This document shows, in pieces, positions 6,445 to 43,096 of a stretch of 64,000 nucleotides of DNA; position 1 is the stretch's first letter; the number at the start of each line of letters is the position of its first letter. The position numbers and the translations under genes were made by a program. Under the pieces are notes generated by a model. That model made no database searches. It saw only the letters and a list, made by a program, of their open reading frames with translations, and was not told the DNA's origin. Origin of the DNA: Escherichia coli (GTDB lineage: Bacteria; Pseudomonadota; Gammaproteobacteria; Enterobacterales; Enterobacteriaceae); the NCBI RefSeq assembly GCF_044324785.1, contig NZ_CP172127.1; one strand, written 5' to 3'.

Positions 6445-7137
6445 TTGGCGTCGCTGGTGGTGATGAAAAAAACACTAAGTGAGGCCACTGCGATGACAAT
6501 CCAAATATCTGCGGAATCCCTTTCTCCGCTACATCATAACCAACTTCCCGTCATCACTACTGAATTGCTTGCCAGTTTGTATGGCACGGAAGTAAATGGT
6601 ATCCAGCAAAACTTCAAGCGCAACATCGCCAGATTTGTCGTAGGAAAGCATTTTTTTAAGCTGGAAGGTAATGAATTACGCGACTTCAAAAACAGACTGA
6701 CAGATAGTCAGTCAGTTGCTAAACATACCCGATCCCTCATTCTCTGGACAGAACGCGGCGCAGCTCGCCATGCCAAAATGCTGGAAACAGAACAGGCCTG
6801 GGAAGTTTTCGAAAAGCTGGAAGATTGTTATTTTAGCCAGCGTCCAGAGAGGCGGAGTACAACTACCGATGACCGTACTCCCTTACGTGATGCCGTTAAT
6901 ATGCTGGTCGGTAAGAAAGGCATGATGTATCCCGATGCCTACACCATGATTCATCAACGCTTCGCCGTCTCTCACATAGAACAACTGTCACAGACGCAAA
7001 TGTTAGAGGCGATTGAATACATCCACTGCCTGCTACTCGATGAAAATCAACCAACCATTCCAGATCACCACTATCAAAAATGGAAAAGTGACCAGAATGC
7101 GCCATGTTGCCAAAGGCGAACATCTGATGACCTTTGA
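6445..7137 (+). CDS. antirepressor-like protein with ORF6N-type N-terminal domain
   Basis: ELLASLYGTEVNGIQQNFKRNIARFVVGKHFFKLEGNELRDF pattern; C-terminal 30 aa look unnatural, possible frameshift into 7013..7270. Confidence 0.5.
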   Translation: MASLVVMKKTLSEATAMTIQISAESLSPLHHNQLPVITTELLASLYGTEVNGIQQNFKRNIARFVVGKHFFKLEGNELRDFKNRLTDSQSVAKHTRSLILWTERGAARHAKMLETEQAWEVFEKLEDCYFSQRPERRSTTTDDRTPLRDAVNMLVGKKGMMYPDAYTMIHQRFAVSHIEQLSQTQMLEAIEYIHCLLLDENQPTIPDHHYQKWKSDQNAPCCQRRTSDDL

Positions 7138-7270
7138 CGCTTTCAAAGAGATCGCTGAGCGGGCAGGGTATCTGGTGATCCACAGCGACAATCTGCGAAG
7201 TATGACACTGGATAAATTGATGGTAATGGGGAAAAAGTCTGCTGTATCCGTTGCTGATTCAGCATTTTGA
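7013..7270 (+). CDS. possible C-terminal continuation of antirepressor in +1 frame, or separate small gene
   Basis: protein-like ORF overlapping the 3' end of 6445..7137 in another frame. Confidence 0.3.
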   Translation: MNTSTACYSMKINQPFQITTIKNGKVTRMRHVAKGEHLMTFDAFKEIAERAGYLVIHSDNLRSMTLDKLMVMGKKSAVSVADSAF

Positions 7271-10898: not shown

Positions 10899-11504
10899 TT
10901 ACTTGCGTTTAAAAAGGTATTTTGTCACGACCAGCACGAGGCCGAATACCTCTGTCAAAGTACCGCCCATGTACAACTGGAGCGTTAAGTCTTTAAATAC
11001 AAGCCATTCAGCACCAGTGGCAAAAAATACACCATTCATTATCAAAAGCTGGCAAGCAAGGATAATAAGGAACCATTTGCCATAGCGTTTTTTTAGATCG
11101 ATTTCAGCTTCAAAATCTTTGTTGTTGAGTTGTTTGCGCTCATGCTCAGTATCAAGTGAATTCACCTGTTTCACAGATGTGAACTCGGTCAAGATTTTAC
11201 TCTCAGTACGGGTGACTTGTTGAGAGGGGGTAGGAATTGGAATTCTTTTGATTGACGCAGCTACAGCCATTTTGCGAGCTTCGGCAGCTCTTTTTCTGGC
11301 TATTCCGTGAATACGGGCAGACGGTTTTTTTGGAGCATGCGAAACCTTTGTCTGAGGTGAAGTTTCGTCAGGAGACTGAACCGGAGTTTCATCCTCCTCC
11401 GGCTCAACCTCTTCTGCTAACTGACGGTGTAGGTTGAGGGAATCCTTCAGTCGGCGTGCAACTTCCTGTTTGAAACGGCTGTTAAAATCGTCATCCGATG
11501 GCAT
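10899..11504 (-). CDS. membrane-anchored protein (charged N-terminal region, two C-terminal TM helices), partner of ImmA-like peptidase
   Basis: start 9 nt after peptidase stop, RBS inside peptidase 3' end; hydrophobic segments WFLIILACQLLIMNGVFFATGA and LVLVVTKYLF. Confidence 0.55.
   Translation of the reverse strand: MPSDDDFNSRFKQEVARRLKDSLNLHRQLAEEVEPEEDETPVQSPDETSPQTKVSHAPKKPSARIHGIARKRAAEARKMAVAASIKRIPIPTPSQQVTRTESKILTEFTSVKQVNSLDTEHERKQLNNKDFEAEIDLKKRYGKWFLIILACQLLIMNGVFFATGAEWLVFKDLTLQLYMGGTLTEVFGLVLVVTKYLFKRK
10901..10978. repeat. direct repeat copy B (~78 bp), coding for the C-terminus of 10899..11504
   Basis: pairs with 7301..7377. Confidence 0.8.
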
Positions 11505-11513
11505 TCTAAAGCG

Positions 11514-12002
11514 TTACCCCAACCTCAAGTTCTTTAAACGATAAGTCATCGCATCGTCAGATACGCCAAAATGATGCGCCATTATATAACTTGGTTGGCC
11601 GTCAGCGTGCAGTTTTCTGACCTCATCTACCGGCATCAGAAGTTCTGCTGCGAACTTGTTCGCAAAAATTTCATCAGGATGCGTTCCGGCGCTTGCGGTT
11701 TCGCCACGTAAATCAACGTACTCATATTCATCGCTATGCGATGCTTGCCGGGCGATGTAATGCCCCAACTCATGCCCACATGAAAAACGTTGACGAACTT
11801 TGTTGTCATCACTGTTTAGAAAGATCGCTGGATCTTGATCTTTTTGTTTAATCAGTGCGCCAGAAACTTTCCCAGGAAGATCGGTAATAAAAACATCTAA
11901 TCCCATGTCGTGAGCAATTTTCGCTGGATCAACAGGGAAACCACGCCCGCACCAGAACGTGTCCAGCACTCGCCGGGCGTGCTCTCTTGGGTTGGTAGCC
12001 AT
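11514..12002 (-). CDS. ImmA/IrrE-family zinc metallopeptidase (DUF955)
   Basis: HELGHY zinc-binding motif and downstream EIFANKFAAELLMP segment. Confidence 0.7.
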   Translation of the reverse strand: MATNPREHARRVLDTFWCGRGFPVDPAKIAHDMGLDVFITDLPGKVSGALIKQKDQDPAIFLNSDDNKVRQRFSCGHELGHYIARQASHSDEYEYVDLRGETASAGTHPDEIFANKFAAELLMPVDEVRKLHADGQPSYIMAHHFGVSDDAMTYRLKNLRLG

Positions 12003-12569: not shown

Positions 12570-12848
12570 ATGAAACACATCTGTAAAAAGTCACATCGTC
12601 ACGACAGTATGTTTGATGTTCTTTCCGCAAATCAGGGGAACGTTGGGCGGCACAAATGTTGTGGATGTGCCTATGATAAAGGTATGTGGCACGCATTAAT
12701 TGGCGTTCCACGTGCGGTTGATGACTCTGTTTTAGGTGATTTGCCCGAAAGCCAGGCCGGGCATGTACGTCATAAAGATGCTTTTGAAGCATATAACATG
12801 GGATATGACCATGGGATGCATAAAAAAGCCTACGGCATGGCCTCATAA
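12570..12848 (+). CDS. hypothetical Cys/His-containing protein (92 aa)
   Basis: ORF followed by a clear intrinsic terminator; antisense ORF 12541..12936 judged spurious. Confidence 0.45.
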   Translation: MKHICKKSHRHDSMFDVLSANQGNVGRHKCCGCAYDKGMWHALIGVPRAVDDSVLGDLPESQAGHVRHKDAFEAYNMGYDHGMHKKAYGMAS

Positions 12849-12868
12849 CCAGGTGTAACTTATTAACT

Positions 12869-12896
12869 AACCCGCTTCGGCGGGTTTTCTTTTTTA
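12869..12896 (+). terminator. intrinsic terminator
   Basis: aacccgcttcggcgggtt hairpin followed by ttcttttttat. Confidence 0.7.
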
Positions 12897-12966
12897 TAGA
12901 ACCCTGCGATGTGAAAACGAATAATAAATTGTGCAAATAGTGCAGTTTTTATTATTCGAGGTAATT

Positions 12967-13608
12967 ATGAAAACCTTCTATGAGGGCTGGCCTGAAACTT
13001 TCGTTAGCCGGTTAGATATGTTACGGGCGTTGGATGATCGCGGTTCGACCCGGAGGCTCTATCTTGAGCGGACCGGAGCAATATTTGGCGCTCTGGCAGA
13101 AGAGATACGTACAGCCGTTGCCGGGCATCCTGAAACTGACGCGAGTGAACTTGATATCGGGCCGCTATATCGCTATTACAAACGTGGAGAAAAGGGGGAT
13201 CCGCTGGCTGACTTACTTATTAAATTGGCTCCACCAACCTGTGAACGGGTTCGTATATCTCCTGAAGTGTACACAATCCCGTATCTGTTTTTTGCACTGT
13301 TGATAGCGCAAGGCGCTGACAACGATGCCCGAGATTTTTTCAATATGATGATGCGACCGTTGATCATCGCCTACCGCTTCAAACAACTGGCGCGCTACCT
13401 TGGCACGAAGGGCGGAGGACGACCACAGCACAGATTAAAAAGTGAAGCCATTGAACTGGCTGATCGTTTTTTTACTGAAAACCCGACTGCGCCATTATCG
13501 CGTGGTGTGCAATACATATCCGGTATTTTTGTGGCGAAATACTCCGATCCACCTGCAGCCTCGACGATTAGAAAATGGTTAATTTCAATTTACAGGAGTG
13601 ATAAATAA
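12967..13608 (+). CDS. hypothetical protein (about 213 aa from internal ATG with GAGGT RBS)
   Basis: ORF 12931..13608; better start at MKTFYEGW; no recognisable domain. Confidence 0.45.
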   Translation: MKTFYEGWPETFVSRLDMLRALDDRGSTRRLYLERTGAIFGALAEEIRTAVAGHPETDASELDIGPLYRYYKRGEKGDPLADLLIKLAPPTCERVRISPEVYTIPYLFFALLIAQGADNDARDFFNMMMRPLIIAYRFKQLARYLGTKGGGRPQHRLKSEAIELADRFFTENPTAPLSRGVQYISGIFVAKYSDPPAASTIRKWLISIYRSDK

Positions 13609-13759
13609 TGACCATAAACGGTTTAATCCCCTATAAAACCGTTTAATAAAATTCACGACGTGAATATAATTGTTCATTATTCCCTCATTGTATCTGGCGT
13701 TATGACAAATGCCATAAAATACTGTATAAATGTACAGGCGGTGGCGTTAGGGGGAAGAC

Positions 13760-13939
13760 ATGAATATTCAAGAATCTATAGGCGAACTACCGGAAACATG
13801 CCGGGCTGTTATCAAGCGTAAGGACGGACACATCGTTGGTGTGCGTGTTCTGACTGATGATGAACGGATTGCCAGCCTGATGGCGTTTCTCGAGTTGGCA
13901 GAAATAGCTGGATATACTATTACACCCCCTGACGCGTAA
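13760..13939 (+). CDS. hypothetical small protein (59 aa), below ORF-track threshold
   Basis: GGGGGAAGA RBS then ATG; translation MNIQESIGELPETCRAVIKRKDGHIVGVRVL... Confidence 0.35.
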   Translation: MNIQESIGELPETCRAVIKRKDGHIVGVRVLTDDERIASLMAFLELAEIAGYTITPPDA

Positions 13940-14016
13940 AACACGGTATAATATCGGTGCTGGATTGAACACCCGGCACCATTTTCTGAACACTGCCGCG
14001 CCACCTGGAGTTAACC

Positions 14017-14613
14017 ATGGCGCAGCATTCATTTATCAGGGTATCCGGCGGTTCGCTAATACCCGCGACACCAGACACGCAACGCTGGTTGACTGAACGA
14101 GTCAAACCAGGTGCTGTTGTGTATGCAGATTTCAAACAGGCGCGTAATCCCGCGTTTCATCGTAAATTTTTCTCACTTCTCAACCTGGGCTTTGATTACT
14201 GGCATCTCTCCGGAGGGGCTATTTCTCCTGCAGAGCGCGAACTGGTTCACGGCTACGTTAAGTTACTGGCTTATTACGGTGGGCATGGTGATGTCATGGC
14301 TGAGCTGGCTGATCAGTATCTTCTCGATGAGTCGGAAAAGCGCGCGGGGAATATCAGTGCGGTTAAGTCGTTCGAGGCGTTTCGCGCCTGGGCGACTATG
14401 GAAGCTGGATTTTATGACGTTCATCAGATGCCAGACGGCAGTGTGATGCGCGTACCTCGTTCAATCTCGTTTGCTGCGATGGACGATCTTGAGTTCGGTC
14501 AACTGTATTCAGCCGTTTTAGATGTGCTGTGGAATTATATTTTGTTCCGCACGTTTGCCTCTCAGGAGGCCGCTGAAAATGCCGCCGCGCAGCTGCTGGA
14601 TTACACATCATGA
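14017..14613 (+). CDS. DUF1367-family phage protein (YbcN-like, nin-region type)
   Basis: position upstream of YbcO-like and Q-like genes; sequence pattern recalled from DLP12 ybcN homologues. Confidence 0.5.
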   Translation: MAQHSFIRVSGGSLIPATPDTQRWLTERVKPGAVVYADFKQARNPAFHRKFFSLLNLGFDYWHLSGGAISPAERELVHGYVKLLAYYGGHGDVMAELADQYLLDESEKRAGNISAVKSFEAFRAWATMEAGFYDVHQMPDGSVMRVPRSISFAAMDDLEFGQLYSAVLDVLWNYILFRTFASQEAAENAAAQLLDYTS

Positions 14614-14903
14614 AAAAAATCGACCTGAGAAAAGCTGCACGCGGTCGCGCTTGTACTGTGCGTATCCCCGGTGTGTGCAATCACAATCCTGAAACCAGTG
14701 TACTGGCTCACTACCACCTCGCCGGAACATGCGGAACAGCAATCAAACCACACGATATGCAGGGCGCTATCGCCTGCAGTGCGTGTCACGATGCTATCGA
14801 CGGACGTACAAAAACAGATTACGAGCGTGATTCCTTATTACTGATGCACACAGAGGGCGTTTTAAGGACGTTGGCCATCTGGCGTAACGAGGGATTCATC
14901 TGA
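14610..14903 (+). CDS. DUF1364-family putative nuclease (YbcO-like)
   Basis: LRKAARGR.C.VRIPGVCN.NPETSVLAH ... ACSACHD.ID closely matches YbcO of DLP12 as recalled. Confidence 0.6.
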   Translation: MKKIDLRKAARGRACTVRIPGVCNHNPETSVLAHYHLAGTCGTAIKPHDMQGAIACSACHDAIDGRTKTDYERDSLLLMHTEGVLRTLAIWRNEGFI

Positions 14904-15574
14904 TGAGTAACGAGTATTTGTTGGAATATACCCGCATAAAACTGCGCGCTGCATTGCGGGATTTGTCTGGTGGTTCTAAGGGGCAGCTGGAAGCATTGTG
15001 TGAGCACCCGCCGGCAGACAAAAACGCATATCCACGCAAACATATTCATCGTGTGCAACTGGAGGACCGGACCGTTGATGCTCTGGTTACGCCAGTTTAC
15101 GCCCTGGAAAGTTTCAGCAGACGTCGTCCCGCGCCGCCGATGAATGATTTTGAATTCGCTGATTCATCGTGGCGCCGCGCCGTGAATTCGCTCGACGTTA
15201 GCCAGCAGGCGTGGTTGCGCTATTGCTACGGTGGTCACCTGGCGTTCAAACACCAAACAGCTATTTGTGAGGCTGTCTGGAGTCGCTATAAAGGACACAT
15301 CCCCGCGTCAACTCAGAGAAAAGTAGCTAAGCGCCTGCTTTCGTTGGTGTGGTTGTCCGTGCAGGCGGTTGCAGCAGCAAATAAACGCGAGGATTTTAAG
15401 GAGATGGCTGGATCTGCGCTAGCTGGAATGTTGTCTGTTTCTCGTTCCACCTGGTGCGAAACATACTCCCCGCACTGGGTAGGAATGAAAGAGGCGGTGA
15501 GAGCACTTGATGAAATGGCACTTCTTGCAACTTTGCATCATTATCAAAACCATTTAGACGACGTTTGCGTATAA
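14903..15574 (+). CDS. late-gene antitermination protein Q-like
   Basis: position between nin-like genes and the late promoter/lysis cassette; 223 aa. Confidence 0.5.
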   Translation: MSNEYLLEYTRIKLRAALRDLSGGSKGQLEALCEHPPADKNAYPRKHIHRVQLEDRTVDALVTPVYALESFSRRRPAPPMNDFEFADSSWRRAVNSLDVSQQAWLRYCYGGHLAFKHQTAICEAVWSRYKGHIPASTQRKVAKRLLSLVWLSVQAVAAANKREDFKEMAGSALAGMLSVSRSTWCETYSPHWVGMKEAVRALDEMALLATLHHYQNHLDDVCV

Positions 15575-15577
15575 TGC

Positions 15578-15606
15578 TTGCAAAACCGAACAAAACAGGC
15601 CATATT
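15578..15606 (+). promoter_or_regulatory. putative late promoter (PR'-like)
   Basis: ttgcaa, 17-bp spacer, catatt immediately after Q stop. Confidence 0.35.
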
Positions 15607-15642
15607 AAACGCTAATTTGGTATGTTGCCAAATTTCTAAGAA

Positions 15643-15671
15643 CCTCGCCACGGCGGGGTTTTGTCGTTTCT
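15643..15671 (+). terminator. putative tR'-like terminator downstream of late promoter
   Basis: cctcgcc..ggcgggg hairpin followed by ttttgtcgttt. Confidence 0.45.
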
Positions 15672-15935
15672 GAATCAGGAAAAATCATGTCTGAACCTCT
15701 AACCGCTGGCGTTGCTGCTGGCTCGGCGGGGGTGACGTTTGCTGCGTTATTTCCTGAGGCAACACCTGCAGTGATGATCTGTGCGCTGGCAGGCGCAGCT
15801 CTCTATGTGTTGTCGTCCGGGCAGCATCGATTCTGGAAGCAGGTTAGACTGGCCCCCTGAATCTCCAGACAACCAATATCACTTAAATAAGTGATAGTCT
15901 TAATACTAGTTTTTAGACTAGTCATTGGAGAGCAG

Positions 15936-16301
15936 ATGATTGATGTCTTAGGACCGGAGAAACGCAGACGGCGTACTACACAGGAAAAGATCGCTATTGT
16001 TCAGCAGAGTTTTGAACCGGGAATGACGGTCTCCCTTGTTGCCCGGCAACACGGTGTGGCAGCCAGCCAGTTATTTCTCTGGCGCAAGCAATACCAGGAG
16101 GGAAGTCTTACTGCTGTGGCCGCAGGAGAGCAGGTCGTTCCTGCCTCTGAACTTGCTGCTGCCATGAAGCAGATTAAAGAACTCCAGCGCCTGCTCGGCA
16201 AAAAAACGATGGAAAATGAACTCCTTAAAGAAGCCGTTGAATACGGGCGTGCAAAAAAGTGGATAGCGCACGCGCCCTTATTGCCCGGGGATGGGGAGTA
16301 A
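15936..16301 (+). CDS. insC: IS2 transposase OrfA (InsC)
   Basis: [53 protein letters not shown]. Confidence 0.9.
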
Positions 16302-17164
16302 GCTTAGTCAGCCGTTGTCTCCGGGTGTCGCGTGCGCAGTTGCACGTAATTCTCAGACGAACCGATGACTGGAAAGATGGTCGCCGCAGCCGTCACTCAG
16401 ATGATACGGATGTGCTTCTCCGTATACACCATGTTATCGGAGAGCTGCCCACGTATGGTTATCGTCGGGTATGGGCGCTGCTTCGCAGACAGGCCGAACT
16501 TGATGGTATGCCTGCGATCAATGCCAAACGTGTTTACCGGATCATGCGCCAGAATGCGCTGTTGCTTGAGCGAAAAACCGCTGTACCGCCATCGAAACGG
16601 GCACATACTGGCAAAGTGGCCGTGAAAGAAAGCAATCAACGATGGTGCTCTGACGGGTTCGAGTTCCGCTGTGATAACGGAGAAAAACTGCGAGTCACGT
16701 TCGCGCTGGACTGCTGTGACCGTGAGGCACTGCACTGGGCAGTCACTACGGGCGGCTTCGACAGTGAAACAGTACAGGACGTAATGCTGGGAGCGGTGGA
16801 ACGCCGCTTCGGCAACGAGCTTCCGGCGTCTCCAGTAGAGTGGCTGACGGATAATGGTTCATGCTACCGGGCTAATGAAACACGGCAGTTTGCCCGGATG
16901 TTGGGGCTTGAACCGAAGAACACGGCGGTGCGGAGTCCGGAGAGTAACGGCATAGCAGAGAGCTTCGTGAAAACGATAAAGCGTGACTACATCAGTATCA
17001 TGCCTAAACCAGACGGGTTAACGGCAGCAAAGAACCTTGCAGAGGCGTTCGAGCATTATAACGAATGGCATCCGCATAGTGCACTGGGTTATCGCTCGCC
17101 ACGGGAATATCTGCGGCAGCAGGCCAGTAATGGGTTAAGTGATAACAGGTGTCTGGAAATATAG
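16259..17164 (+). CDS. insD: IS2 transposase OrfB (InsD)
   Basis: 301-aa DDE transposase overlapping insC in -1 frame. Confidence 0.9.
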
Positions 17165-17405
17165 GGGCAAATCCACAGGTTATTTTCGCACTCATTTCGT
17201 TTGTTGGCGGTGTGTATTGCGCTGAGACAGCATCAGCCATCATTACCGGTATTCTGAACGCGGTGCTGAGTCACCTGAACCCTCCCGTAACAGTAAAAGT
17301 CTCTCCCGCCATTGGTGCACTGGTTGCATCAGTAATCAGCGTTACATCACTGTTGCGGATCATGTCACAAGCTCGTTTATGGAAATCAGATAAGGGGATG
17401 AAATA

Positions 17406-17678
17406 ATGACCCTGCACTCTGTCCTCATTAATGCCAATGCAATTATCTGTCTGATGCTGGCACTGCGGTTGATGTTTTTTCAAAAAACAGGCCGCTATCG
17501 TTTTTTCATCTCACTAACTGCTTACCTGGCGATTCTGTCTGCTGCGTGGATAGCCCTACGAATTTTTTATGGGAAATATACGCAGGTTGATCCCGCAGAG
17601 TTCTTTCTCAACCTCACCATCTGTATTGCTGTCTGGCGGGCACGAGGGAATATTTCAAAAATAACAGGAGACAGGTAA
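17406..17678 (+). CDS. small membrane protein, holin/antiholin-like
   Basis: 90 aa with two hydrophobic helices; start overlaps the disrupted holin stop (ATAATGA). Confidence 0.45.
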   Translation: MTLHSVLINANAIICLMLALRLMFFQKTGRYRFFISLTAYLAILSAAWIALRIFYGKYTQVDPAEFFLNLTICIAVWRARGNISKITGDR

Positions 17679-18160
17679 TGACGGATCCTAAATGGCTAAT
17701 TGAGGCTCGAAAAAACCTCGGCATTCGGGAAATGAAAGGGAAGCAACATGCTGCAGAAATTGTGCAGTACTGGAAAGATATCAAACGCGGCGGCATTAAG
17801 GATGACGAAACACCGTGGTGCTCCGCCTTCACAGGAGCAATGCTGGAACGTGCAGGTATTCGCTCAACGCGTTTTGAGTCTGCGAATTCTTATCTCGATT
17901 GGGGTAATGAACTGAAGGAACCCGCCTATGGATGCATTGCTATTCTGTCTCGGTCTGGCGGTGGTCACGTCGGCTTTGTTGTCGGGAAAAATGCCGCCGG
18001 GGATTTAATGATTTTGGGGGGCAACCAGGCAGATGAAGTAAATATCAAAGCTTTTCCGAGCTCACGAGTTACCGGCTATCGCTGGCCTGTTGATGTGCTG
18101 GATGTGCCGTCAACCTTGCCGCTGCTGATGGGAGGTGAATTATCAACTTCGGAGCAGTAA
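17678..18160 (+). CDS. putative endolysin, CHAP/NlpC-P60-like cell-wall peptidase (TIGR02594-type)
   Basis: ETPWCSAF Cys and GGGHVGFVVG His motifs; position after holin genes. Confidence 0.55.
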   Translation: MTDPKWLIEARKNLGIREMKGKQHAAEIVQYWKDIKRGGIKDDETPWCSAFTGAMLERAGIRSTRFESANSYLDWGNELKEPAYGCIAILSRSGGGHVGFVVGKNAAGDLMILGGNQADEVNIKAFPSSRVTGYRWPVDVLDVPSTLPLLMGGELSTSEQ

Positions 18161-18162
18161 CC

Positions 18163-18354
18163 ATGAAAAAGTTCTTTCTACTGGCAGCGTTGGTGCTTGC
18201 GGGTTGCTCAAACACGACGTACACGGAAGCAACGCATCCCAACGGCACGACCGTAAAGCACATTTCTATCGCACCGGGTACGAAGATCACAACCGCAAGT
18301 GGTGGCTGTATCGACTCTGCCGGGGCTGCGGCTTCATGCCCATTGGATCAATGA
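18163..18354 (+). CDS. small lipoprotein, possible spanin component
   Basis: signal peptide with lipobox LAGC; directly follows endolysin. Confidence 0.45.
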   Translation: MKKFFLLAALVLAGCSNTTYTEATHPNGTTVKHISIAPGTKITTASGGCIDSAGAAASCPLDQ

Positions 18355-18552
18355 GGGTAATTGGCATAGGCAATTTAACCGTATAAGTGCGCCTTCACCG
18401 GCTTCCTGCAAATAAGTGCATTTCGTAATTTATAAAGTTCTAAGAAGCAAGTCCATAAGCTTAACATTACAGCACAAACGATCTGTTTTTAGTTCTATGG
18501 GTGTTCTCTTTTTTCGGGAATATATTTTAGTAACCAGAATTAAATTCTAAAA

Positions 18553-18577
18553 GGCCTCGCAACTGCGGGGCTTTTTT
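18553..18577 (+). terminator. intrinsic terminator after lysis cassette
   Basis: gcctcgc-aact-gcggggc hairpin plus tttttt. Confidence 0.55.
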
Positions 18578-18730
18578 ATATCCGTATTTCGCTGCGCACC
18601 GCATGCGCATATCAACCACCGAACCAAACCCTTTGGAATGAGCCGTTGAGGATGTCAGTTAGTGCTGGCGAGCCTCGGTGGGCTGACTTCCTATGCGGCA
18701 ACGGTTCATCTCAAAGAGTAGGTACACGCT

Positions 18731-19228
18731 ATGAAATCATTAACCCTCTTCAATCAACCAATCCGCGTCGGGGATGATGGCATGATCTGCCTCACCGACA
18801 TGTGGAAAGCCAGCGGCAAAAGTGACGCTGAATCGCCGTACCACTATCTGCGAAACAAGCAGACCAAAGAGTTCCTTGTCGAGCTGGAGAAAAACCACGA
18901 ATCTGTGGTTTTCACTGCCCGCGGCGTACACGGCGGAACCTATGGCGGGAAGTTTGTTGCTTACGATTATGCGGCTTGGTTAAACCCAGGGTTCAAGTAT
19001 GCAGCCTATAAAGTACTCGATGACTACTTCACCGGAGAGCTTCGGCATCGTAATAGCTTAAGTGCGCAGCTCAACATGAAGTGTTATGAGTTTGACCAGA
19101 AGAAAGACATGGCGAGCTTCTGTGGGCAAGGACTCGCGGCATGGCGTTATACAAAGCCTGTGCTGATCGCTGAGATGAACACCTTGGCAAACCAACTGCA
19201 GATTACGCTCCCTGGACTTCCTGGATGA
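18731..19228 (+). CDS. KilA-N domain protein
   Basis: N-terminal FNQPIRVGDDGMICLTDMWKASGKSDAESPYHYLRNKQTKEFL. Confidence 0.55.
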   Translation: MKSLTLFNQPIRVGDDGMICLTDMWKASGKSDAESPYHYLRNKQTKEFLVELEKNHESVVFTARGVHGGTYGGKFVAYDYAAWLNPGFKYAAYKVLDDYFTGELRHRNSLSAQLNMKCYEFDQKKDMASFCGQGLAAWRYTKPVLIAEMNTLANQLQITLPGLPG

Positions 19229-19467
19229 GTAATCGCGTCATCGAATGCGCCTCCAGAGCGGGGCGTGACTTCTCAGAGTTCATGAAAGGCGAGAAGGGTA
19301 TGGAGGACGCGCTGTCCTCGGTGAATCAGTTTGGCGAGCAGATTCGACTCAACGGCTGCGTCAATCATCACTTTGTCAGTTACATGATGCGTAACGCGAT
19401 CATGCAGGCATTCATGGACATGGCAAGCACTGAGAAAAAAGAAGAGCGCCGACGTAAACGAGCGTAA
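19225..19467 (+). CDS. hypothetical protein (80 aa)
   Basis: start overlaps stop of KilA-N gene. Confidence 0.4.
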   Translation: MSNRVIECASRAGRDFSEFMKGEKGMEDALSSVNQFGEQIRLNGCVNHHFVSYMMRNAIMQAFMDMASTEKKEERRRKRA

Positions 19468-19617
19468 GCAAAAGCTGAGTAGTCATTCCAAAGCTCATCC
19501 CCGGGCGGGCTTGATAATGGATAGTCATCACAGATTTAAAATGTGGCAATGAAGTCTCTTTAATAAGCCAATTCTTAGCATTATTCTGACCTCTCCAATT
19601 GAAAAGGAGGTTGAGTA

Positions 19618-19809
19618 ATGTCAGATGAAATCCGTCGCTGTAAAATCGTCAGTATGTATGAACAACCCGAGGGAACGTTCATTAAGTTCGCTCCAGTGAA
19701 ATTCTATGACGAAGGCAACAACCCTCATGTCGGCGAGCAAGCAATCGTAGAGATGGATAACGGCAAAGTGATTACCGTAAACCCGGGTGAGATTCACTTT
19801 ATTAAATAG
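19618..19809 (+). CDS. hypothetical protein (63 aa)
   Basis: AAGGAGG RBS; followed by terminator. Confidence 0.45.
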   Translation: MSDEIRRCKIVSMYEQPEGTFIKFAPVKFYDEGNNPHVGEQAIVEMDNGKVITVNPGEIHFIK

Positions 19810-19830
19810 TGACAAAACTGATTGTGATGA

Positions 19831-19853
19831 AACCCACTGCGGTGGGTTTTTTA
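19831..19853 (+). terminator. intrinsic terminator
   Basis: aacccactgcggtgggtt hairpin plus tttttatt. Confidence 0.7.
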
Positions 19854-19883
19854 TTGCCATCACCATGGGCAGACCCATCGTAA

Positions 19884-19913
19884 TGGCAAAAGCAGGGCGA
19901 GGTTATCGCCCTG
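19884..19913 (-). terminator. intrinsic terminator for minus-strand operon 19918..20420
   Basis: cagggcga..tcgccctg hairpin followed on minus strand by cttttg. Confidence 0.5.
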
Positions 19914-19917
19914 TGTC

Positions 19918-20187
19918 TTAACCGCGTGCCTCACGACCCTCCTCGTCCTCAGGTACACGATATCGCCAGTATTTGTCCGGCCTAACCCAAACAACATCCC
20001 CGCCGCTATCAACTCTGAACTTATTTATGACTTTTGTTGAAAGTGCTTGGTTGCCGTCTGCATTTTCCTTCAAATGTTGCTCATTACCAACTTTGACCAA
20101 ATAATCAACGACGTCCTGCTGGTATAAGCATCCATCTTTTTGCAGTGCAGATAACATCCAATTTGATACATCTGCAACATCTAACAC
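19918..20187 (-). CDS. hypothetical protein (89 aa)
   Basis: second gene of minus-strand pair. Confidence 0.4.
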   Translation of the reverse strand: MLDVADVSNWMLSALQKDGCLYQQDVVDYLVKVGNEQHLKENADGNQALSTKVINKFRVDSGGDVVWVRPDKYWRYRVPEDEEGREARG

Positions 20188-20201
20188 AGTGGTTGATTGG
20201 G

Positions 20202-20420
20202 TTATGGCTTTGGGATGAATTTATCTAACGACTCTTCTGGGAAATTACCACTGTCTAATTTCCTTCCTGCAAACCATTGGCAACGGTAGTTACCATTGAA
20301 GGTATCCGATAAGGTAGTAAGTGGTTTTTCAACAGTCATTGCTGGGCCACCTGATTTCAATACGACTAGCTCCCCTTTATTAAATTTTGCAACTGGAGTT
20401 TGTGAAGGTGCTTTAGCCAT
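20202..20420 (-). CDS. DUF2158-family small protein (YodC-like paralog)
   Basis: KGELVVLKSGGPAMTVEK ... YRCQWFAGRKL ... FPEESL parallels host YodC (57562..57744). Confidence 0.55.
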   Translation of the reverse strand: MAKAPSQTPVAKFNKGELVVLKSGGPAMTVEKPLTTLSDTFNGNYRCQWFAGRKLDSGNFPEESLDKFIPKP

Positions 20421-20757
20421 TTTATGTCCTTAAAAGTTAGTGATATGACAATGATTAGATGGCGACAATAGGTATAAATTTCAATAATAACAACTTGACT
20501 TAGCTCACAAAATTTAAAGGAAATCTTATGGCAAAACCGGACTGGGGAGCACTGCAACACCAGTTCCTCGCCGTCCATGCCAAAACGGGTATATCACCGA
20601 AAGAATGGTGTGACGCGTAGGGACTGAGCTTCGCAACAGCCGCCGACGTATAAAAAACAATTGCGCAATGTGCCAAAGAGCTGGTGCCTGATGTAAGAGA
20701 CGTTTTACTTAAACGAGAGGCCGCCTTTTTGTTTTAAGACGGCACACCTTCAACAGG

Positions 20758-40821: not shown

Positions 40822-42648
40822 ATGGCAATAATATCGGGTGTATACGCAAATGGGGTCGGCGAGCCCGTTGTCGGCGTTCAGTTAGTATTAACAGCACGGG
40901 TCACGAGTTCACGCGTAGTAATGACCACTGTTGTAGAGCAAGAAACAGGCGCGGCGGGTGAGTACAAATTTGATATGAAGCCCGGAGTTTACGTTGTCAC
41001 TGCTAGTGCGGCATATCTCGGCGTGATTAACGTTAACCCGGACAGTGTTGACGGCACGTTAAACGACTATTTGACTAATTTTAGCGCAGACGAACTGACG
41101 CCAGCTGCGTTGGCGGAGATCCAGGAACTCGTTGCCACAGCACAAGCCGCTGCCAGTGTTGCCAGCGCCGCCGCAACGGAGGCCAGGCAGAATGCCGCCG
41201 CCGCCGCTGCTGCTGCGCAGATTTCGACGGCAGCGGCAGGGAGCGCCAGATTTGAGAATTTTGACGAAATTATCAATGTCAATACAACAGCAATGCTGGA
41301 GCTGGAAAAACCGGAGGTGTTAGATCCGGATATTGCAATAACTATCACAGAGACGATTAATTATAACTATATTGGCCCGGTAAACGGATTTTGCGACGTT
41401 ACTAGCCCGCTTGAATATAAAATTCAAATGTACGCCTACACAACAGGCGAATATTTTAACGGCGAAACAAATTTAACAGCGGACGGGAAGTTTTCTTTTA
41501 AACGTTCCTGGGCTGGTGCAAAACAATTCAGATTGGTGCGCGTAGCAGATAGTAAATGGATCACTACGCTGGAATACCCGCTGTGTATTCGCAGTTACTG
41601 GATGCCCGCTGACGCCGATCCCGAGGTAGTCAGCGTCATGAAAGACCGTTGCTACACATATGATCAGGCGTGCGCGGCGCTGGCTCTCATGGCGCAGAAT
41701 CACGAGGCGGTAGAGCGTTATGTTACGGGTCTGTGCGCCCTGGTGGGTGAAAACGGCGGCATTAAATTTTTTGTTAACCGGCTGTCCGCACAGTCCTCCC
41801 GCGAATATTACCGCACGGGTAACGCGGCGTGGGTGTTGTACGCCCTGGCATTCTATCTGAGCAAATACCCTACCGGCAGTAACGCTGAGTTAGCGCGCGC
41901 GAAATTAAACGCCGGGCTAACCTGGCTGGACGGTCTGAAGGTTGACGCCAGCGGCGACCCGCGCCACGGCTTATACATGGGCGGCAACGGTAAATATCTG
42001 GAGGACGGATCATTTGATCCGAATTATGTTGCGACCTGGTGCGCGCTCGAGCACAACGTTGATATTTATTTTTTATTCGAACTCGTTGGACGGTTAACCG
42101 ATTTTACCGGATACGAACTGCGAGCCACCACGCTGGCTGCAAATATCGTGGAAAAATTCTGGATTGAGAGCGAGGGGCGATTCCGGCAGGGCGTGCACAT
42201 TGACGGCCCGGACAACGCCGCAGCGCTGGATCAATCGAGTTGGGGCGGGATATTCGCAGTAAAAGCCGCGCCGGAGTTGGCGGAAAAATGCCGCCGTTAT
42301 ATGGAAAGATTCCGGTTCGGCACACTGGAGAGCACCGGTTATACACCGTATCACCCGGACTACGGATACAGCGGCCATAGCCGTGGCGTGTGGACCGAGG
42401 GTACAGCGGGTGTAGCACTATTCGAACGTGCGCTAGGGAACGAGCAGAGAGCTACCGATCTGATCGCGGGATTAAAACCACTGCGTAATGAATACGGCTA
42501 TCGCGACTCATGCGACGATAAAAAATACGACACACTGCCGGACTGGCCGTCGACTACAAACACCGCTTGGGTTATTTTAACATGCAAGCCGGCGGGGTTT
42601 TGGTGCGTAGATTTCCCGGTATTGGACGTTGGTATCGTCAGGTACTGA
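40822..42648 (+). CDS. side-tail-fibre-like N-terminal domain fused to putative (alpha/alpha)6 glycoside-hydrolase-like domain
   Basis: N-terminal ~100 aa parallel lambda Stf N-terminus; Ala-rich linker; ~400-aa C-terminal domain with glycosidase-like character. Confidence 0.5.
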   Translation: MAIISGVYANGVGEPVVGVQLVLTARVTSSRVVMTTVVEQETGAAGEYKFDMKPGVYVVTASAAYLGVINVNPDSVDGTLNDYLTNFSADELTPAALAEIQELVATAQAAASVASAAATEARQNAAAAAAAAQISTAAAGSARFENFDEIINVNTTAMLELEKPEVLDPDIAITITETINYNYIGPVNGFCDVTSPLEYKIQMYAYTTGEYFNGETNLTADGKFSFKRSWAGAKQFRLVRVADSKWITTLEYPLCIRSYWMPADADPEVVSVMKDRCYTYDQACAALALMAQNHEAVERYVTGLCALVGENGGIKFFVNRLSAQSSREYYRTGNAAWVLYALAFYLSKYPTGSNAELARAKLNAGLTWLDGLKVDASGDPRHGLYMGGNGKYLEDGSFDPNYVATWCALEHNVDIYFLFELVGRLTDFTGYELRATTLAANIVEKFWIESEGRFRQGVHIDGPDNAAALDQSSWGGIFAVKAAPELAEKCRRYMERFRFGTLESTGYTPYHPDYGYSGHSRGVWTEGTAGVALFERALGNEQRATDLIAGLKPLRNEYGYRDSCDDKKYDTLPDWPSTTNTAWVILTCKPAGFWCVDFPVLDVGIVRY

Positions 42649-42676
42649 CAATTATAATTTTTGGAGTTTTTTATAC

Positions 42677-43096
42677 ATGGTCGTTAAAAATATTCTTGCC
42701 TTTGGGATTATGTGTGCGCTTGCTGGTTGTGCAACCAAGCCAGTCTCAAACGAGCAGGCTACTCCCGTTCCAGAAAAACAGGTAATCAATAGCGCAATAC
42801 TCGAAAAAAGAGATGGGACAGGAGAGGTGATCATCAAGCGTGATTCGGGTTTCTTTGGGAGCGCGTGCTTTTCCCGTGTTTATGTTGATGGTAAAGAGGT
42901 GGCAGATTTAGGTACAGCTCAGAAAGTCGTTGTATACCCAACGATTGGTGATCATGTCTTCAGCGCGTGGCCAAAAGGAGTATGTGGTGGTGGCATGAGT
43001 GAGCAGGCGGGCAAGGTGACAACAGATCGTACTTTGATGTATCGCATAGGTTACGGTTCAAACGGTGAATATGGCATTCACCCAACTGCGTTTTAA
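42677..43096 (+). CDS. lipoprotein (about 139 aa from internal ATG), prophage-end cargo
   Basis: GGAG RBS then MVVKNILAFGIMCALAGCATK with lipobox; last gene before att. Confidence 0.5.
   Translation: MVVKNILAFGIMCALAGCATKPVSNEQATPVPEKQVINSAILEKRDGTGEVIIKRDSGFFGSACFSRVYVDGKEVADLGTAQKVVVYPTIGDHVFSAWPKGVCGGGMSEQAGKVTTDRTLMYRIGYGSNGEYGIHPTAF

Follow-up and report, generated by a model that had tools for sequence, protein, structure and literature searches.

Does a prophage still lyse its host when an insertion sequence has broken the first gene of its lysis cassette? The question is raised by a 64,000-nucleotide stretch of Escherichia coli contig NZ_CP172127.1 (assembly GCF_044324785.1; hereafter, the window), which carries an Escherichia prophage with a lambdoid head and a contractile tail. 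The gene that heads the late lysis cassette of this prophage, here termed gene A, is split by a copy of IS2; the gene that follows it is termed gene B. IS elements often insert in prophage genes, and this insertion bears on the prophage's ability to kill its host or release particles. The coordinates of the features discussed below are collected in Table 1.

Table 1. Features of the interrupted lysis cassette and of the inserted IS2 (window coordinates).
Feature	Position	Strand	Remarks
Antiterminator Q homologue	14903-15574	+	phrog_304 'anti-termination protein Q-like', 9.4e-76
G+C-rich hairpin + T-run	15639-15672	+	terminator-like in consensus scan; between Q and gene A
Gene A, 5′ fragment	15687-15844	+	codons 1-52 plus 2 nt
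Target duplication, left CAGGT	15840-15844	.	one copy in relatives with intact gene
IS2 IRL	15845-15886
IS2 orfA/insC	15936-16301	+	121 aa
IS2 A6G slippery (-1 frameshift) motif	16253-16259	+	sequence reading
IS2 orfB/insD	16259-17164	+	301 aa
IS2 IRR	17135-17175
Target duplication, right CAGGT	17176-17180	.	one copy in relatives with intact gene
Gene A, 3′ fragment	17181-17406	+	1 nt plus codons 54-127, stop
Gene B	17406-17678	+	90-aa intact membrane protein, Phage_holin_3_7 (PF05449) / phrog_217
Endolysin candidate	17678-18160	+	160 aa; TIGR02594, 137.1 bits (cut-off 70.55), profile 2-132 of 132
Predicted lipoprotein	18163-18354	+	63 aa, LAGC lipobox, conserved in phage 705R4

The inserted element occupies positions 15845-17175 on the + strand (1331 bp), with its transposase genes co-directional with the lysis genes, as determined by direct reading and by script. 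Its ends form imperfect inverted repeats of 42 and 41 bp in a gapped alignment, TAGACTGGCCCCC... and ...GGGGCAAATCCA. The products of orfA and orfB match the NCBIfam models for IS2 TnpA (NF006928, 275.8 bits; cut-off 229) and IS2 TnpB (NF006918, 706.5 bits; cut-off 597), respectively. In length, repeats, two ORFs with a frameshift site, 5-bp duplication and near-identity, the element agrees throughout with IS2, a member of the IS3 family. It is the only IS2 copy within the window, several E. coli genomes have copies that match it at 100% over all 1331 bp, and copies covering at least 80% of the element are present in 4059 genomes; from other E. coli IS2 copies it differs only in its insertion site. 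In describing a 1331-bp IS2 with a 5-bp CAGGT duplication, the sequence-only reading of this DNA is correct to the base.

Intact relatives carry a single CAGGT at the same place. Specifically, a 127-nt query with the restored site at its centre finds a one-piece match in 443 of 5,426 complete E. coli genomes (414 of the 443 at at least 99% identity), and the IS2-occupied site is present in none of the 5,426. Given that a 5-bp match at a given position is expected by chance at a rate of 1/1024, this expectation and the empty-site evidence together exclude a chance origin of the CAGGT pair. An exact search for the left junction in a collection of one genome per species, with a single E. coli/Shigella representative, gave no match. 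The same left junction is, in turn, recorded in an independent short-read assembly, SRR31073010, which ends 28 nt into IS2, indicating that the insertion is not an assembly artefact; the exact 57-aa shortened product of gene A is also recorded there. The insertion is a recent IS2 transposition into codon 53 of gene A, its recency being pointed to by the 100% identity of the IS2 to other copies and by the perfect target duplication.

As it stands, the 5′ fragment of gene A runs into IS2 and reaches a stop at 15860, after 57 aa, while a GTG at 17149, in the right end of IS2, starts a putative in-frame 85-aa ORF spanning the 3′ fragment. Deletion of IS2 and one CAGGT restores a 384-nt ORF encoding 127 aa and four hydrophobic segments, bearing out the in-frame protein of about 127 aa with hydrophobic segments that had been reconstructed from the letters of the sequence. 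Restored A has 100% identity with URC10632.1 of Escherichia phage vB_EcoM-705R4, and its residues 52-127 are 100% identical to WP_001294589.1. Its proposed place in a holin family was upheld by profile alignment, with matches to Pfam Phage_holin_8 (PF16931; 5e-11, residues 1-117) and to phrog_198 (2.7e-34, residues 1-125). Furthermore, PF16931 is present in each of the homologues of 123-134 aa.

The hydropathy profile of restored A places its four segments at residues ~5-21, 28-44, 53-85 and 95-111, and an AlphaFold2 model of low confidence (pLDDT 56), used for helix positions only, places helices at residues 6-21, 27-43, 49-82 and 95-122. The C-terminal tail is basic (MSQARLWKSDKGMK), with four basic residues and one acidic residue among the last 15. 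A is small, with transmembrane segments and a charged C-terminal tail, and in this respect fits the holin trait. The break falls after residue 52; IS2 cuts A between hydrophobic segments 2 and 3, and the result is a null allele of A. A search for solved-structure relatives of A, B and the endolysin found none.

The cassette lies directly downstream of a Q homologue with 97.8% full-length identity to Q of the E. coli TUM13936 prophage. The hairpin between Q and gene A folds as RNA with -15.9 kcal/mol (z = -2.3), and we infer a resemblance to the tR′ terminator of lambdoid late-promoter regions. Gene B, which begins where gene A ends, has its ATG overlapping the stop of A (TAATG) and its own Shine-Dalgarno sequence, AAGGGG. 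Its product is a three-segment protein with a conserved basic RGN tail; it matches PF05449 (1.1e-18, Pfam) and phrog_217 (4.4e-31, PHROG) over the full length and is 100% identical to the TUM13936 and phage 705R4 copies. The endolysin candidate, whose family TIGR02594 comprises NlpC/P60-CHAP-like cell-wall hydrolases, also gives a weak CHAP match (7.8e-5). By hydropathy, it is without an N-terminal hydrophobic segment, and its access to the cell wall would thus depend on a hole. The 63-aa lipoprotein matches no family in profile searches, and it is not accompanied by the ORF with an N-terminal transmembrane segment that a two-component spanin (Rz/Rz1) would include. These results confirm the downstream order first read from the sequence, namely a second membrane protein, an endolysin and a lipoprotein. 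In a consensus scan, IS2 contains no terminator-like site on the + strand and its right end forms no hybrid outward promoter.

Two uninterrupted alleles show the same cassette in full. In the prophage of E. coli TUM13936, the same 127-aa gene (WP_001294589.1, 'putative holin') stands in the order Q, A, B and TIGR02594 endolysin, and in Escherichia phage vB_EcoM-705R4 (ON470624) the same cassette, with URC10632.1 as A, is followed by a small lipoprotein ORF that lacks an annotation in TUM13936. At the DNA level the identity is ~98%. The two prophages differ in their surroundings, in that the TUM13936 prophage adjoins yecA whereas that in the window adjoins the dgcQ/dcm region, and they also differ in early and cargo genes. 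The chromosomal flank in the window reaches no more than 98.7% identity with any complete E. coli genome.

The order A-B-endolysin is found in all 23 phage records examined, which include Hendrixvirinae, Uetakevirus, Schitoviridae, Peduoviridae and Casjensviridae, and in all seven genome or metagenome loci examined. The endolysins at these A-B loci are of the CHAP, GH19, GH24 and PG_binding_1+Muramidase types. A profile comparison of A with B is negative. Two unrelated small membrane proteins, A of PF16931 / phrog_198 and B of PF05449 / phrog_217, are shown to form a fixed module in widely differing phages, whatever the endolysin type. A lies inside the lysis cassette, yet B always stands between A and the endolysin, both in the window and in the 23 phage loci. 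In Pseudomonas, A is intact without B in 9 of 48 genome loci, while no B without A occurs in 21 loci selected through B, an asymmetry hinting at a possibly greater autonomy of A.

Modules of the phiCTX type offer the closest comparison in gene content. Members are phiCTX ORF9/ORF10, Burkholderia KS5 gp35/gp34 and AP3 gp13/gp14, Ralstonia RSA1 ORF12/ORF13, Salmonella SPN1S 0026/0027, phiP27 L28/L29 and Klebsiella Pylas gp75/gp76, and they share with the window a phrog_198 gene followed by a phrog_217 gene (PF16931 then PF05449), the two adjoining or overlapping and placed immediately before the endolysin gene. They differ in belonging to other phage lineages and having other endolysin types, and most of them have a recognisable Rz/Rz1 spanin pair, whereas the window cassette has none. 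Annotators of the Burkholderia phages KS5, KS14, KL3 and AP3 and of Klebsiella Pylas label A a putative antiholin and B a holin. The 'antiholin' or 'LysA' labels on the KS5, AP3 and Carl1 homologues of A are positional; more generally, the upstream type has been called 'putative antiholin' and the downstream type 'holin' by position and topology only (PMC3091744; GenBank, Pylas note). In the literature we found only genome annotations, with no experiments on members of PF16931 or PF05449 and no experimental dissection of phiCTX-type modules.

Better-studied lysis systems resemble this one in function only. In lambda, antiholin and holin come from the same gene. Lambda S105/S107 and P2 Y (holin) with LysA (membrane antiholin) offer the analogy of a small class-I-like holin with a membrane protein that tunes its timing; P2 lysA is non-essential and affects timing, according to its record note, and the P2 gene order is Y, K, lysA, unlike A-B-endolysin. 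A and B have no detectable homology to P2 Y and LysA (hhalign probabilities ≤0.6%); in particular, A does not align as an antiholin of the LysA type (hhalign probability 0.3%), LysA being the one dedicated membrane antiholin compared. The Pseudomonas aeruginosa pyocin holin Hol (PA0614, TC 1.E.20), which serves a signal-less endolysin, is experimentally supported (PMC8131026, PMC10710452). phiCTX ORF9 belongs to family A, and Hol was considered as a homologue of ORF9 and thereby as an experimental anchor for A. It was dropped, because TC 1.E.20 holins are unrelated to the phiCTX type, TC 1.E.56 (Ghequire et al. 2015, PMC4684702), and the 48 Pseudomonas loci from a motif scan for phiCTX-ORF9 relatives include no P. 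aeruginosa locus. The evidence on Hol is not transferable to A or B, since it concerns a different holin family.

What, then, does the loss of A do? The sequence-only reading held that the holin is inactivated and that the prophage is in consequence probably unable to lyse its host. The broken gene does belong to a holin family, but a lysis block does not follow firmly from this, since B is an intact full-length holin-family gene, A and B are a fixed pair, and annotators call B the holin. The phenotype could be a lysis block, or premature or otherwise mistimed lysis. We tentatively favour, with somewhat less than even confidence, the reading that B is the hole-former and A an antiholin-like partner, the loss of which mistimes lysis. 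B, with its three segments, its basic RGN tail and its constant place beside the endolysin, would form the hole, and A, as a membrane partner of B, would set or restrain the timing of hole formation. After induction, Q-modified transcription would pass through IS2, and B and the endolysin would be made. Lysis would still take place, though mistimed, most probably premature and with a small burst. The lesion would cripple the prophage rather than lock it in. The expression of B and the endolysin could, in addition, be lowered by IS2 polarity or because translation no longer runs through the A-B overlap.

Almost as likely is that A is itself the holin, or else shares that role with B as an obligate co-holin, in which case virions would be made without lysis and the prophage would be locked in. 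A has holin-like features of its own, namely about four transmembrane helices, a basic C-terminal tail and matches to holin-annotated families, including a holin-named Pfam family, and these weaken the reading that its loss merely mistimes lysis. That reading is weakened further by the A-only Pseudomonas loci, by the position- and topology-based origin of the 'antiholin' labels and by the lack of homology to LysA. The presence of A in 23 of 23 phage modules suggests a role beyond that of an optional timer, the A-only loci have no B-only counterpart among the loci examined, and an endolysin without an export signal would be wholly dependent on a hole. Against a requirement for A, however, B is a full-length, intact holin-family protein that always adjoins the endolysin, annotators of the best-studied carriers give the holin role to B, and we found no experiment on the A family. 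Moreover, where other phages carry two neighbouring holin-like genes, losing one of them often shifts lysis in time and does not prevent it. The strict co-occurrence of A and B suits an obligate two-component holin as well as it suits a hole-former with a timing partner; that A and B are such a holin, with A indispensable and the arrangement conserved in lambdoid, N4-like, P2-like, epsilon15-like and Casjens-type phages alike, seems to us less likely than not.

The effect could also lie outside A. IS2 insertions are classically polar, and this one sits just after Q and the terminator-like hairpin and ahead of every late gene (B, endolysin, head and tail), so that IS2 might reduce or stop late transcription or uncouple the translation of B, which may be partly coupled through the overlap of the A stop with the B start; late proteins, rather than A itself, would then be what is missing. 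We consider this improbable, because IS2 has no intrinsic-terminator-like site on the + strand, its ORFs are co-directional and translated, which would counteract Rho, and B has its own Shine-Dalgarno sequence. In addition, Q-type antitermination is processive, and the Q-modified RNA polymerase of lambdoid phages is established to resist both Rho-dependent and intrinsic terminators. Less probable still is that the insertion is without consequence, the prophage being already defective or non-inducible through other lesions in or beyond the window. The window begins inside the early region and contains neither attL nor int and xis, and the ORF6N-domain gene (6445-7270) is frameshifted into two parts when compared with its counterpart in the TUM13936 prophage. 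On the other hand, full-length ORFs are present throughout the repressor/Cro region, the replication genes, Q and the late genes, and each of the 24 late genes running from terS to gpD in TUM13936 is matched in the window by a full-length ORF free of stops; the identical IS2 and its perfect duplication point to a recent hit in an otherwise undecayed prophage.

The event itself is an ordinary IS knock-out of an already known kind, and every component is annotated in public records. Its modest practical value is that the strain carries a clean, apparently recent A-null allele of the PF16931-PF05449 module, with the rest of the late region intact. Phages of many lineages share this module, among them therapeutic-candidate phages of Klebsiella, Salmonella, Burkholderia and Ralstonia, and its current labels ('holin', 'antiholin', 'holin/antiholin') are guesses. 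Should A and B prove to be an obligate two-component holin, the strain would be a natural, otherwise isogenic A-null lysogen in which virions are assembled and none released. It would then provide a ready genetic handle on the roles of the two proteins in a widespread lysis module, and would show a host disarming its prophage by one IS hit.

Deletion by script of the IS2 element together with one CAGGT joins the two parts of the interrupted gene, here termed A, into a 384-nt ORF encoding 127 aa, in agreement with the sequence-only reading, in which two ORF fragments joined in frame into a protein of ~127 aa. The restored locus is collinear, as one aligned piece over the junction at ~98% identity, with 463 complete E. 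coli genomes and with Escherichia phage vB_EcoM-705R4 (705R4). With a 127-nt probe that has the restored site at its centre, 443 complete E. coli genomes give a full-length match (414 at ≥99%), while no split match was found among the E. coli genomes searched, and the junction alignment shows that intact copies carry one CAGGT. At the protein level, restored A has 100% identity to URC10632.1 of 705R4 and 98% identity to a protein cluster of 225 members.

IS2 contains orfA and orfB, which overlap at an A6G slippery motif, between termini that form imperfect inverted repeats of 42 and 41 bp (script). Direct reading and script agree exactly with the earlier description of a 1331-bp IS2 with insC/insD between two CAGGT copies. 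The window contains no second IS2 copy (script), and the element is identical over its full length to copies in E. coli genomes, 4059 of 5426 of which carry a near-complete copy. The insertion is real: the flanks are not a chance repeat, since intact copies have a single CAGGT and an uninterrupted site, nor is the junction an assembly artefact, since the independent Logan assembly of run SRR31073010 has the same left junction. In that assembly, a contig is 100% identical to window positions 12687-15872 and ends 28 nt into IS2, and a 57-aa truncated A product is on record. A recent insertion is suggested by the perfect target duplication and by the element's 100% identity to other copies. Inactivation of a prophage gene by IS2 is an already known, ordinary kind of event.

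Features of the prophage, the interrupted lysis cassette and the chromosomal flank
Feature	Position	Strand	Size	Basis or match
Prophage	1 to ~43,250			collinear with the prophage of E. coli TUM13936 and with 705R4
ORF6N-domain gene	6445-7270	+		overlapping ORFs 6445-7137 and 7013-7270
Cargo region	10899-12002	-
A, 5′ part	15687-15844			script
CAGGT, left	15840-15844			direct reading, script
IS2	15845-17175		1331 bp	direct reading of 15400-18900, script
orfA	15936-16301		121 aa	NCBIfam IS2 TnpA, above curated cut-off
A6G motif	16253			script
orfB	16259-17164		301 aa	NCBIfam IS2 TnpB, above curated cut-off
ORF from GTG in IS2 right end	17149-17406	+	85 aa
CAGGT, right	17176-17180			direct reading, script
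A, 3′ part	17181-17406			script
Gene B	17406-17678		90 aa	PF05449 Phage_holin_3_7 1e-18; phrog_217 'holin' 4e-31
Lipoprotein, LAGC lipobox	18163-18354	+	63 aa	last gene of cassette; ORF also in 705R4
Segment between cassette and terminase	18362-20531
KilA-N/Rha-like regulator and second gene	18731-19467	+	165 aa, 80 aa	phrog_129, phrog_875
Extra tail-fibre gene	40822-42648	+	608 aa	phrog_13714 1.4e-214
Lipoprotein gene	42629-43096			phrog_890
Escherichia chromosome	43255-64000			dgcQ-dcm region

Compared with holin families, the restored A protein matches Pfam Phage_holin_8 (PF16931, 5e-11) and phrog_198 'holin' (2.7e-34). Hydropathy indicates four hydrophobic segments (~5-21, 28-44, 53-85 and 95-111) and a basic tail, and a low-confidence AlphaFold model (pLDDT 56) has helices at 6-21, 27-43, 49-82 and 95-122. 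IS2 lies in codon 53, so A loses its last two helices and the tail; transposition of IS2 produced a null allele of A. The 85-aa ORF opened by a GTG in the IS2 right end shares the reading frame of the 3′ part of A, overlaps the end of insD in a different frame and could in principle yield a C-terminal A fragment (helices 3-4).

The rest of the lysis cassette and the late region are intact. B, whose ATG overlaps the stop codon of A, shows 100% identity to its counterpart in intact relatives. The gene after B encodes a 160-aa protein of the TIGR02594 family (137 bits, cut-off 70.55) with a weak CHAP match; this protein lacks a hydrophobic N-terminus and is predicted to be a cytoplasmic endolysin, which would need a hole to reach the wall. 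For the lipoprotein that follows, neither PHROG nor NCBIfam gives a family match; it lacks a C-terminal membrane segment, and the cassette contains no i-spanin partner or recognisable spanin pair. The order of a second small membrane protein, endolysin and lipoprotein proposed earlier is thereby borne out. A Q-type antiterminator gene and a terminator-like hairpin lie 5′ of A, the usual lambdoid late-control layout.

The prophage, whose left end (int, xis, attL) is outside the window, combines a lambda-like head with a P2/Mu-like contractile tail. From terS to gpD, all late genes of the TUM13936 relative correspond to full-length, stop-free genes in the window, and only A among the late genes is broken. 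In the early region, the ORF6N-domain gene (antirepressor/KilA-N-like) aligns with a 264-aa TUM13936 protein in two tblastn segments in different frames, indicating a frameshift near 7031-7074. The cargo region, between replication genes and a NinB-like gene, encodes an ImmA/IrrE-type metalloprotease (CapP-like PADLOC match, 1.6e-25) adjoining a 201-aa phrog_5346 protein, and the two may be a regulatory or defence-associated pair. Neither the TUM13936 prophage nor 705R4 has a counterpart of the segment between cassette and terminase, which holds the KilA-N/Rha-like regulator. After the gpD-like late-control gene, the extra tail-fibre gene, missing from the TUM13936 prophage, precedes the phrog_890 lipoprotein gene. 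Gene order in the flank (dgcQ, dcm, hprS, msrP and others) follows that of E. coli. In a set of 5,426 complete E. coli genomes, the highest identity to the flank is 98.7%, with none at 99%, placing the source in an Escherichia/Shigella lineage outside this set. The prophage and its TUM13936 relative occupy different sites, the latter beside yecA.

A and B have no detectable homology to each other. In tblastn searches, 30 phage records contained an A-type gene and 169 a B-type gene. In all 23 phage loci compared (16 picked via B alone, 5 via A, plus 705R4 and phiCTX; family calls by PHROGs for 7 pairs and local HMMs for the others), an A-family gene runs up to or into the start of a B-family gene, and the latter abuts an endolysin gene. 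Carriers include lambdoid Hendrixvirinae (mEp390, ENT39118), phiP27, Uetakevirus SPN1S, N4-like Schitoviridae (Pollock, Pylas), Peduoviridae (RSA1, KS5, AP3, phiCTX) and Casjensviridae (MA12, Seifer, UF_RH7), and the same order recurs in seven genome or metagenome loci (five via divergent B, two via A). The endolysin behind the pair varies (CHAP, GH19, GH24 and PG_binding_1+Muramidase types). In these phage, genome and metagenome loci (L004-L024, L026-L030, L032-L034), PF16931-PF05449 is an invariant module, combined with at least four unrelated endolysin types in at least five phage families. Among 48 Pseudomonas species genomes found by A-family motif scan, B lies directly 3′ of A in 39; in nine (L057, L059, L062, L064, L066, L069, L073, L081, L082) an intact A stands alone between genes for a LuxR-type HTH regulator and an Ogr-like zinc-finger protein, with no B-like ORF in any of six frames. 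Syntenic loci of other Pseudomonas species (e.g. L065) retain B and another 166-aa ORF. The A-only loci may represent remnants or else domestication of a holin-like gene.

We found no experimental study of the PF16931 or PF05449 families in the literature. In Lynch et al. 2010 (PMC3091744), the DUF754 (PF05449) protein of KS5, KS14 and KL3 is named a holin and the 113-124-aa protein upstream a 'putative antiholin', with the explicit statement that gene order and predicted transmembrane topology are the basis of these labels. The notes in the GenBank records of Pylas and Seifer likewise give holin and putative antiholin, or 'holin-antiholin'; RefSeq names A and B alike 'holin', and annotations across loci are inconsistent ('holin', 'antiholin', 'holin/antiholin', 'hypothetical'). 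Neither A nor B is detectably homologous to P2 LysA (antiholin) or P2 Y (holin). The proven P. aeruginosa holin PA0614, considered as a relative of phiCTX ORF9 and experimental anchor for A, was rejected, as this kinship is contradicted by Ghequire et al. 2015 (PMC4684702) and unsupported by the motif scan of Pseudomonas genomes.

The sequence-only reading was right that a holin-like gene is inactivated, but its further step, that the prophage is probably unable to lyse its host, does not follow directly, since an intact second holin-family gene, B, comes next. We lean, at somewhat less than even confidence, towards B as the hole-former and A as its timing partner, in which case an induced cell would still lyse, at the wrong time. 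B is favoured as the hole-former because of its constant position beside the endolysin, its three hydrophobic segments and its conserved basic RGN tail; its Pfam name offers the lead that it belongs to holin superfamily III. Nearly as likely, lysis fails, as the sequence-only reading proposed, A being itself the holin or an obligate co-holin; the constant presence of A in phages and the Pseudomonas loci with A alone favour this view. Less likely, though possible, is a polar action of IS2 on the entire late operon, given that IS2 has no terminator-like site on the + strand, that Q-type antitermination resists terminators, and that B has its own Shine-Dalgarno sequence. The added value of the insertion lies only in its being a natural A-null allele with which to probe a widespread, uncharacterised two-gene lysis module.
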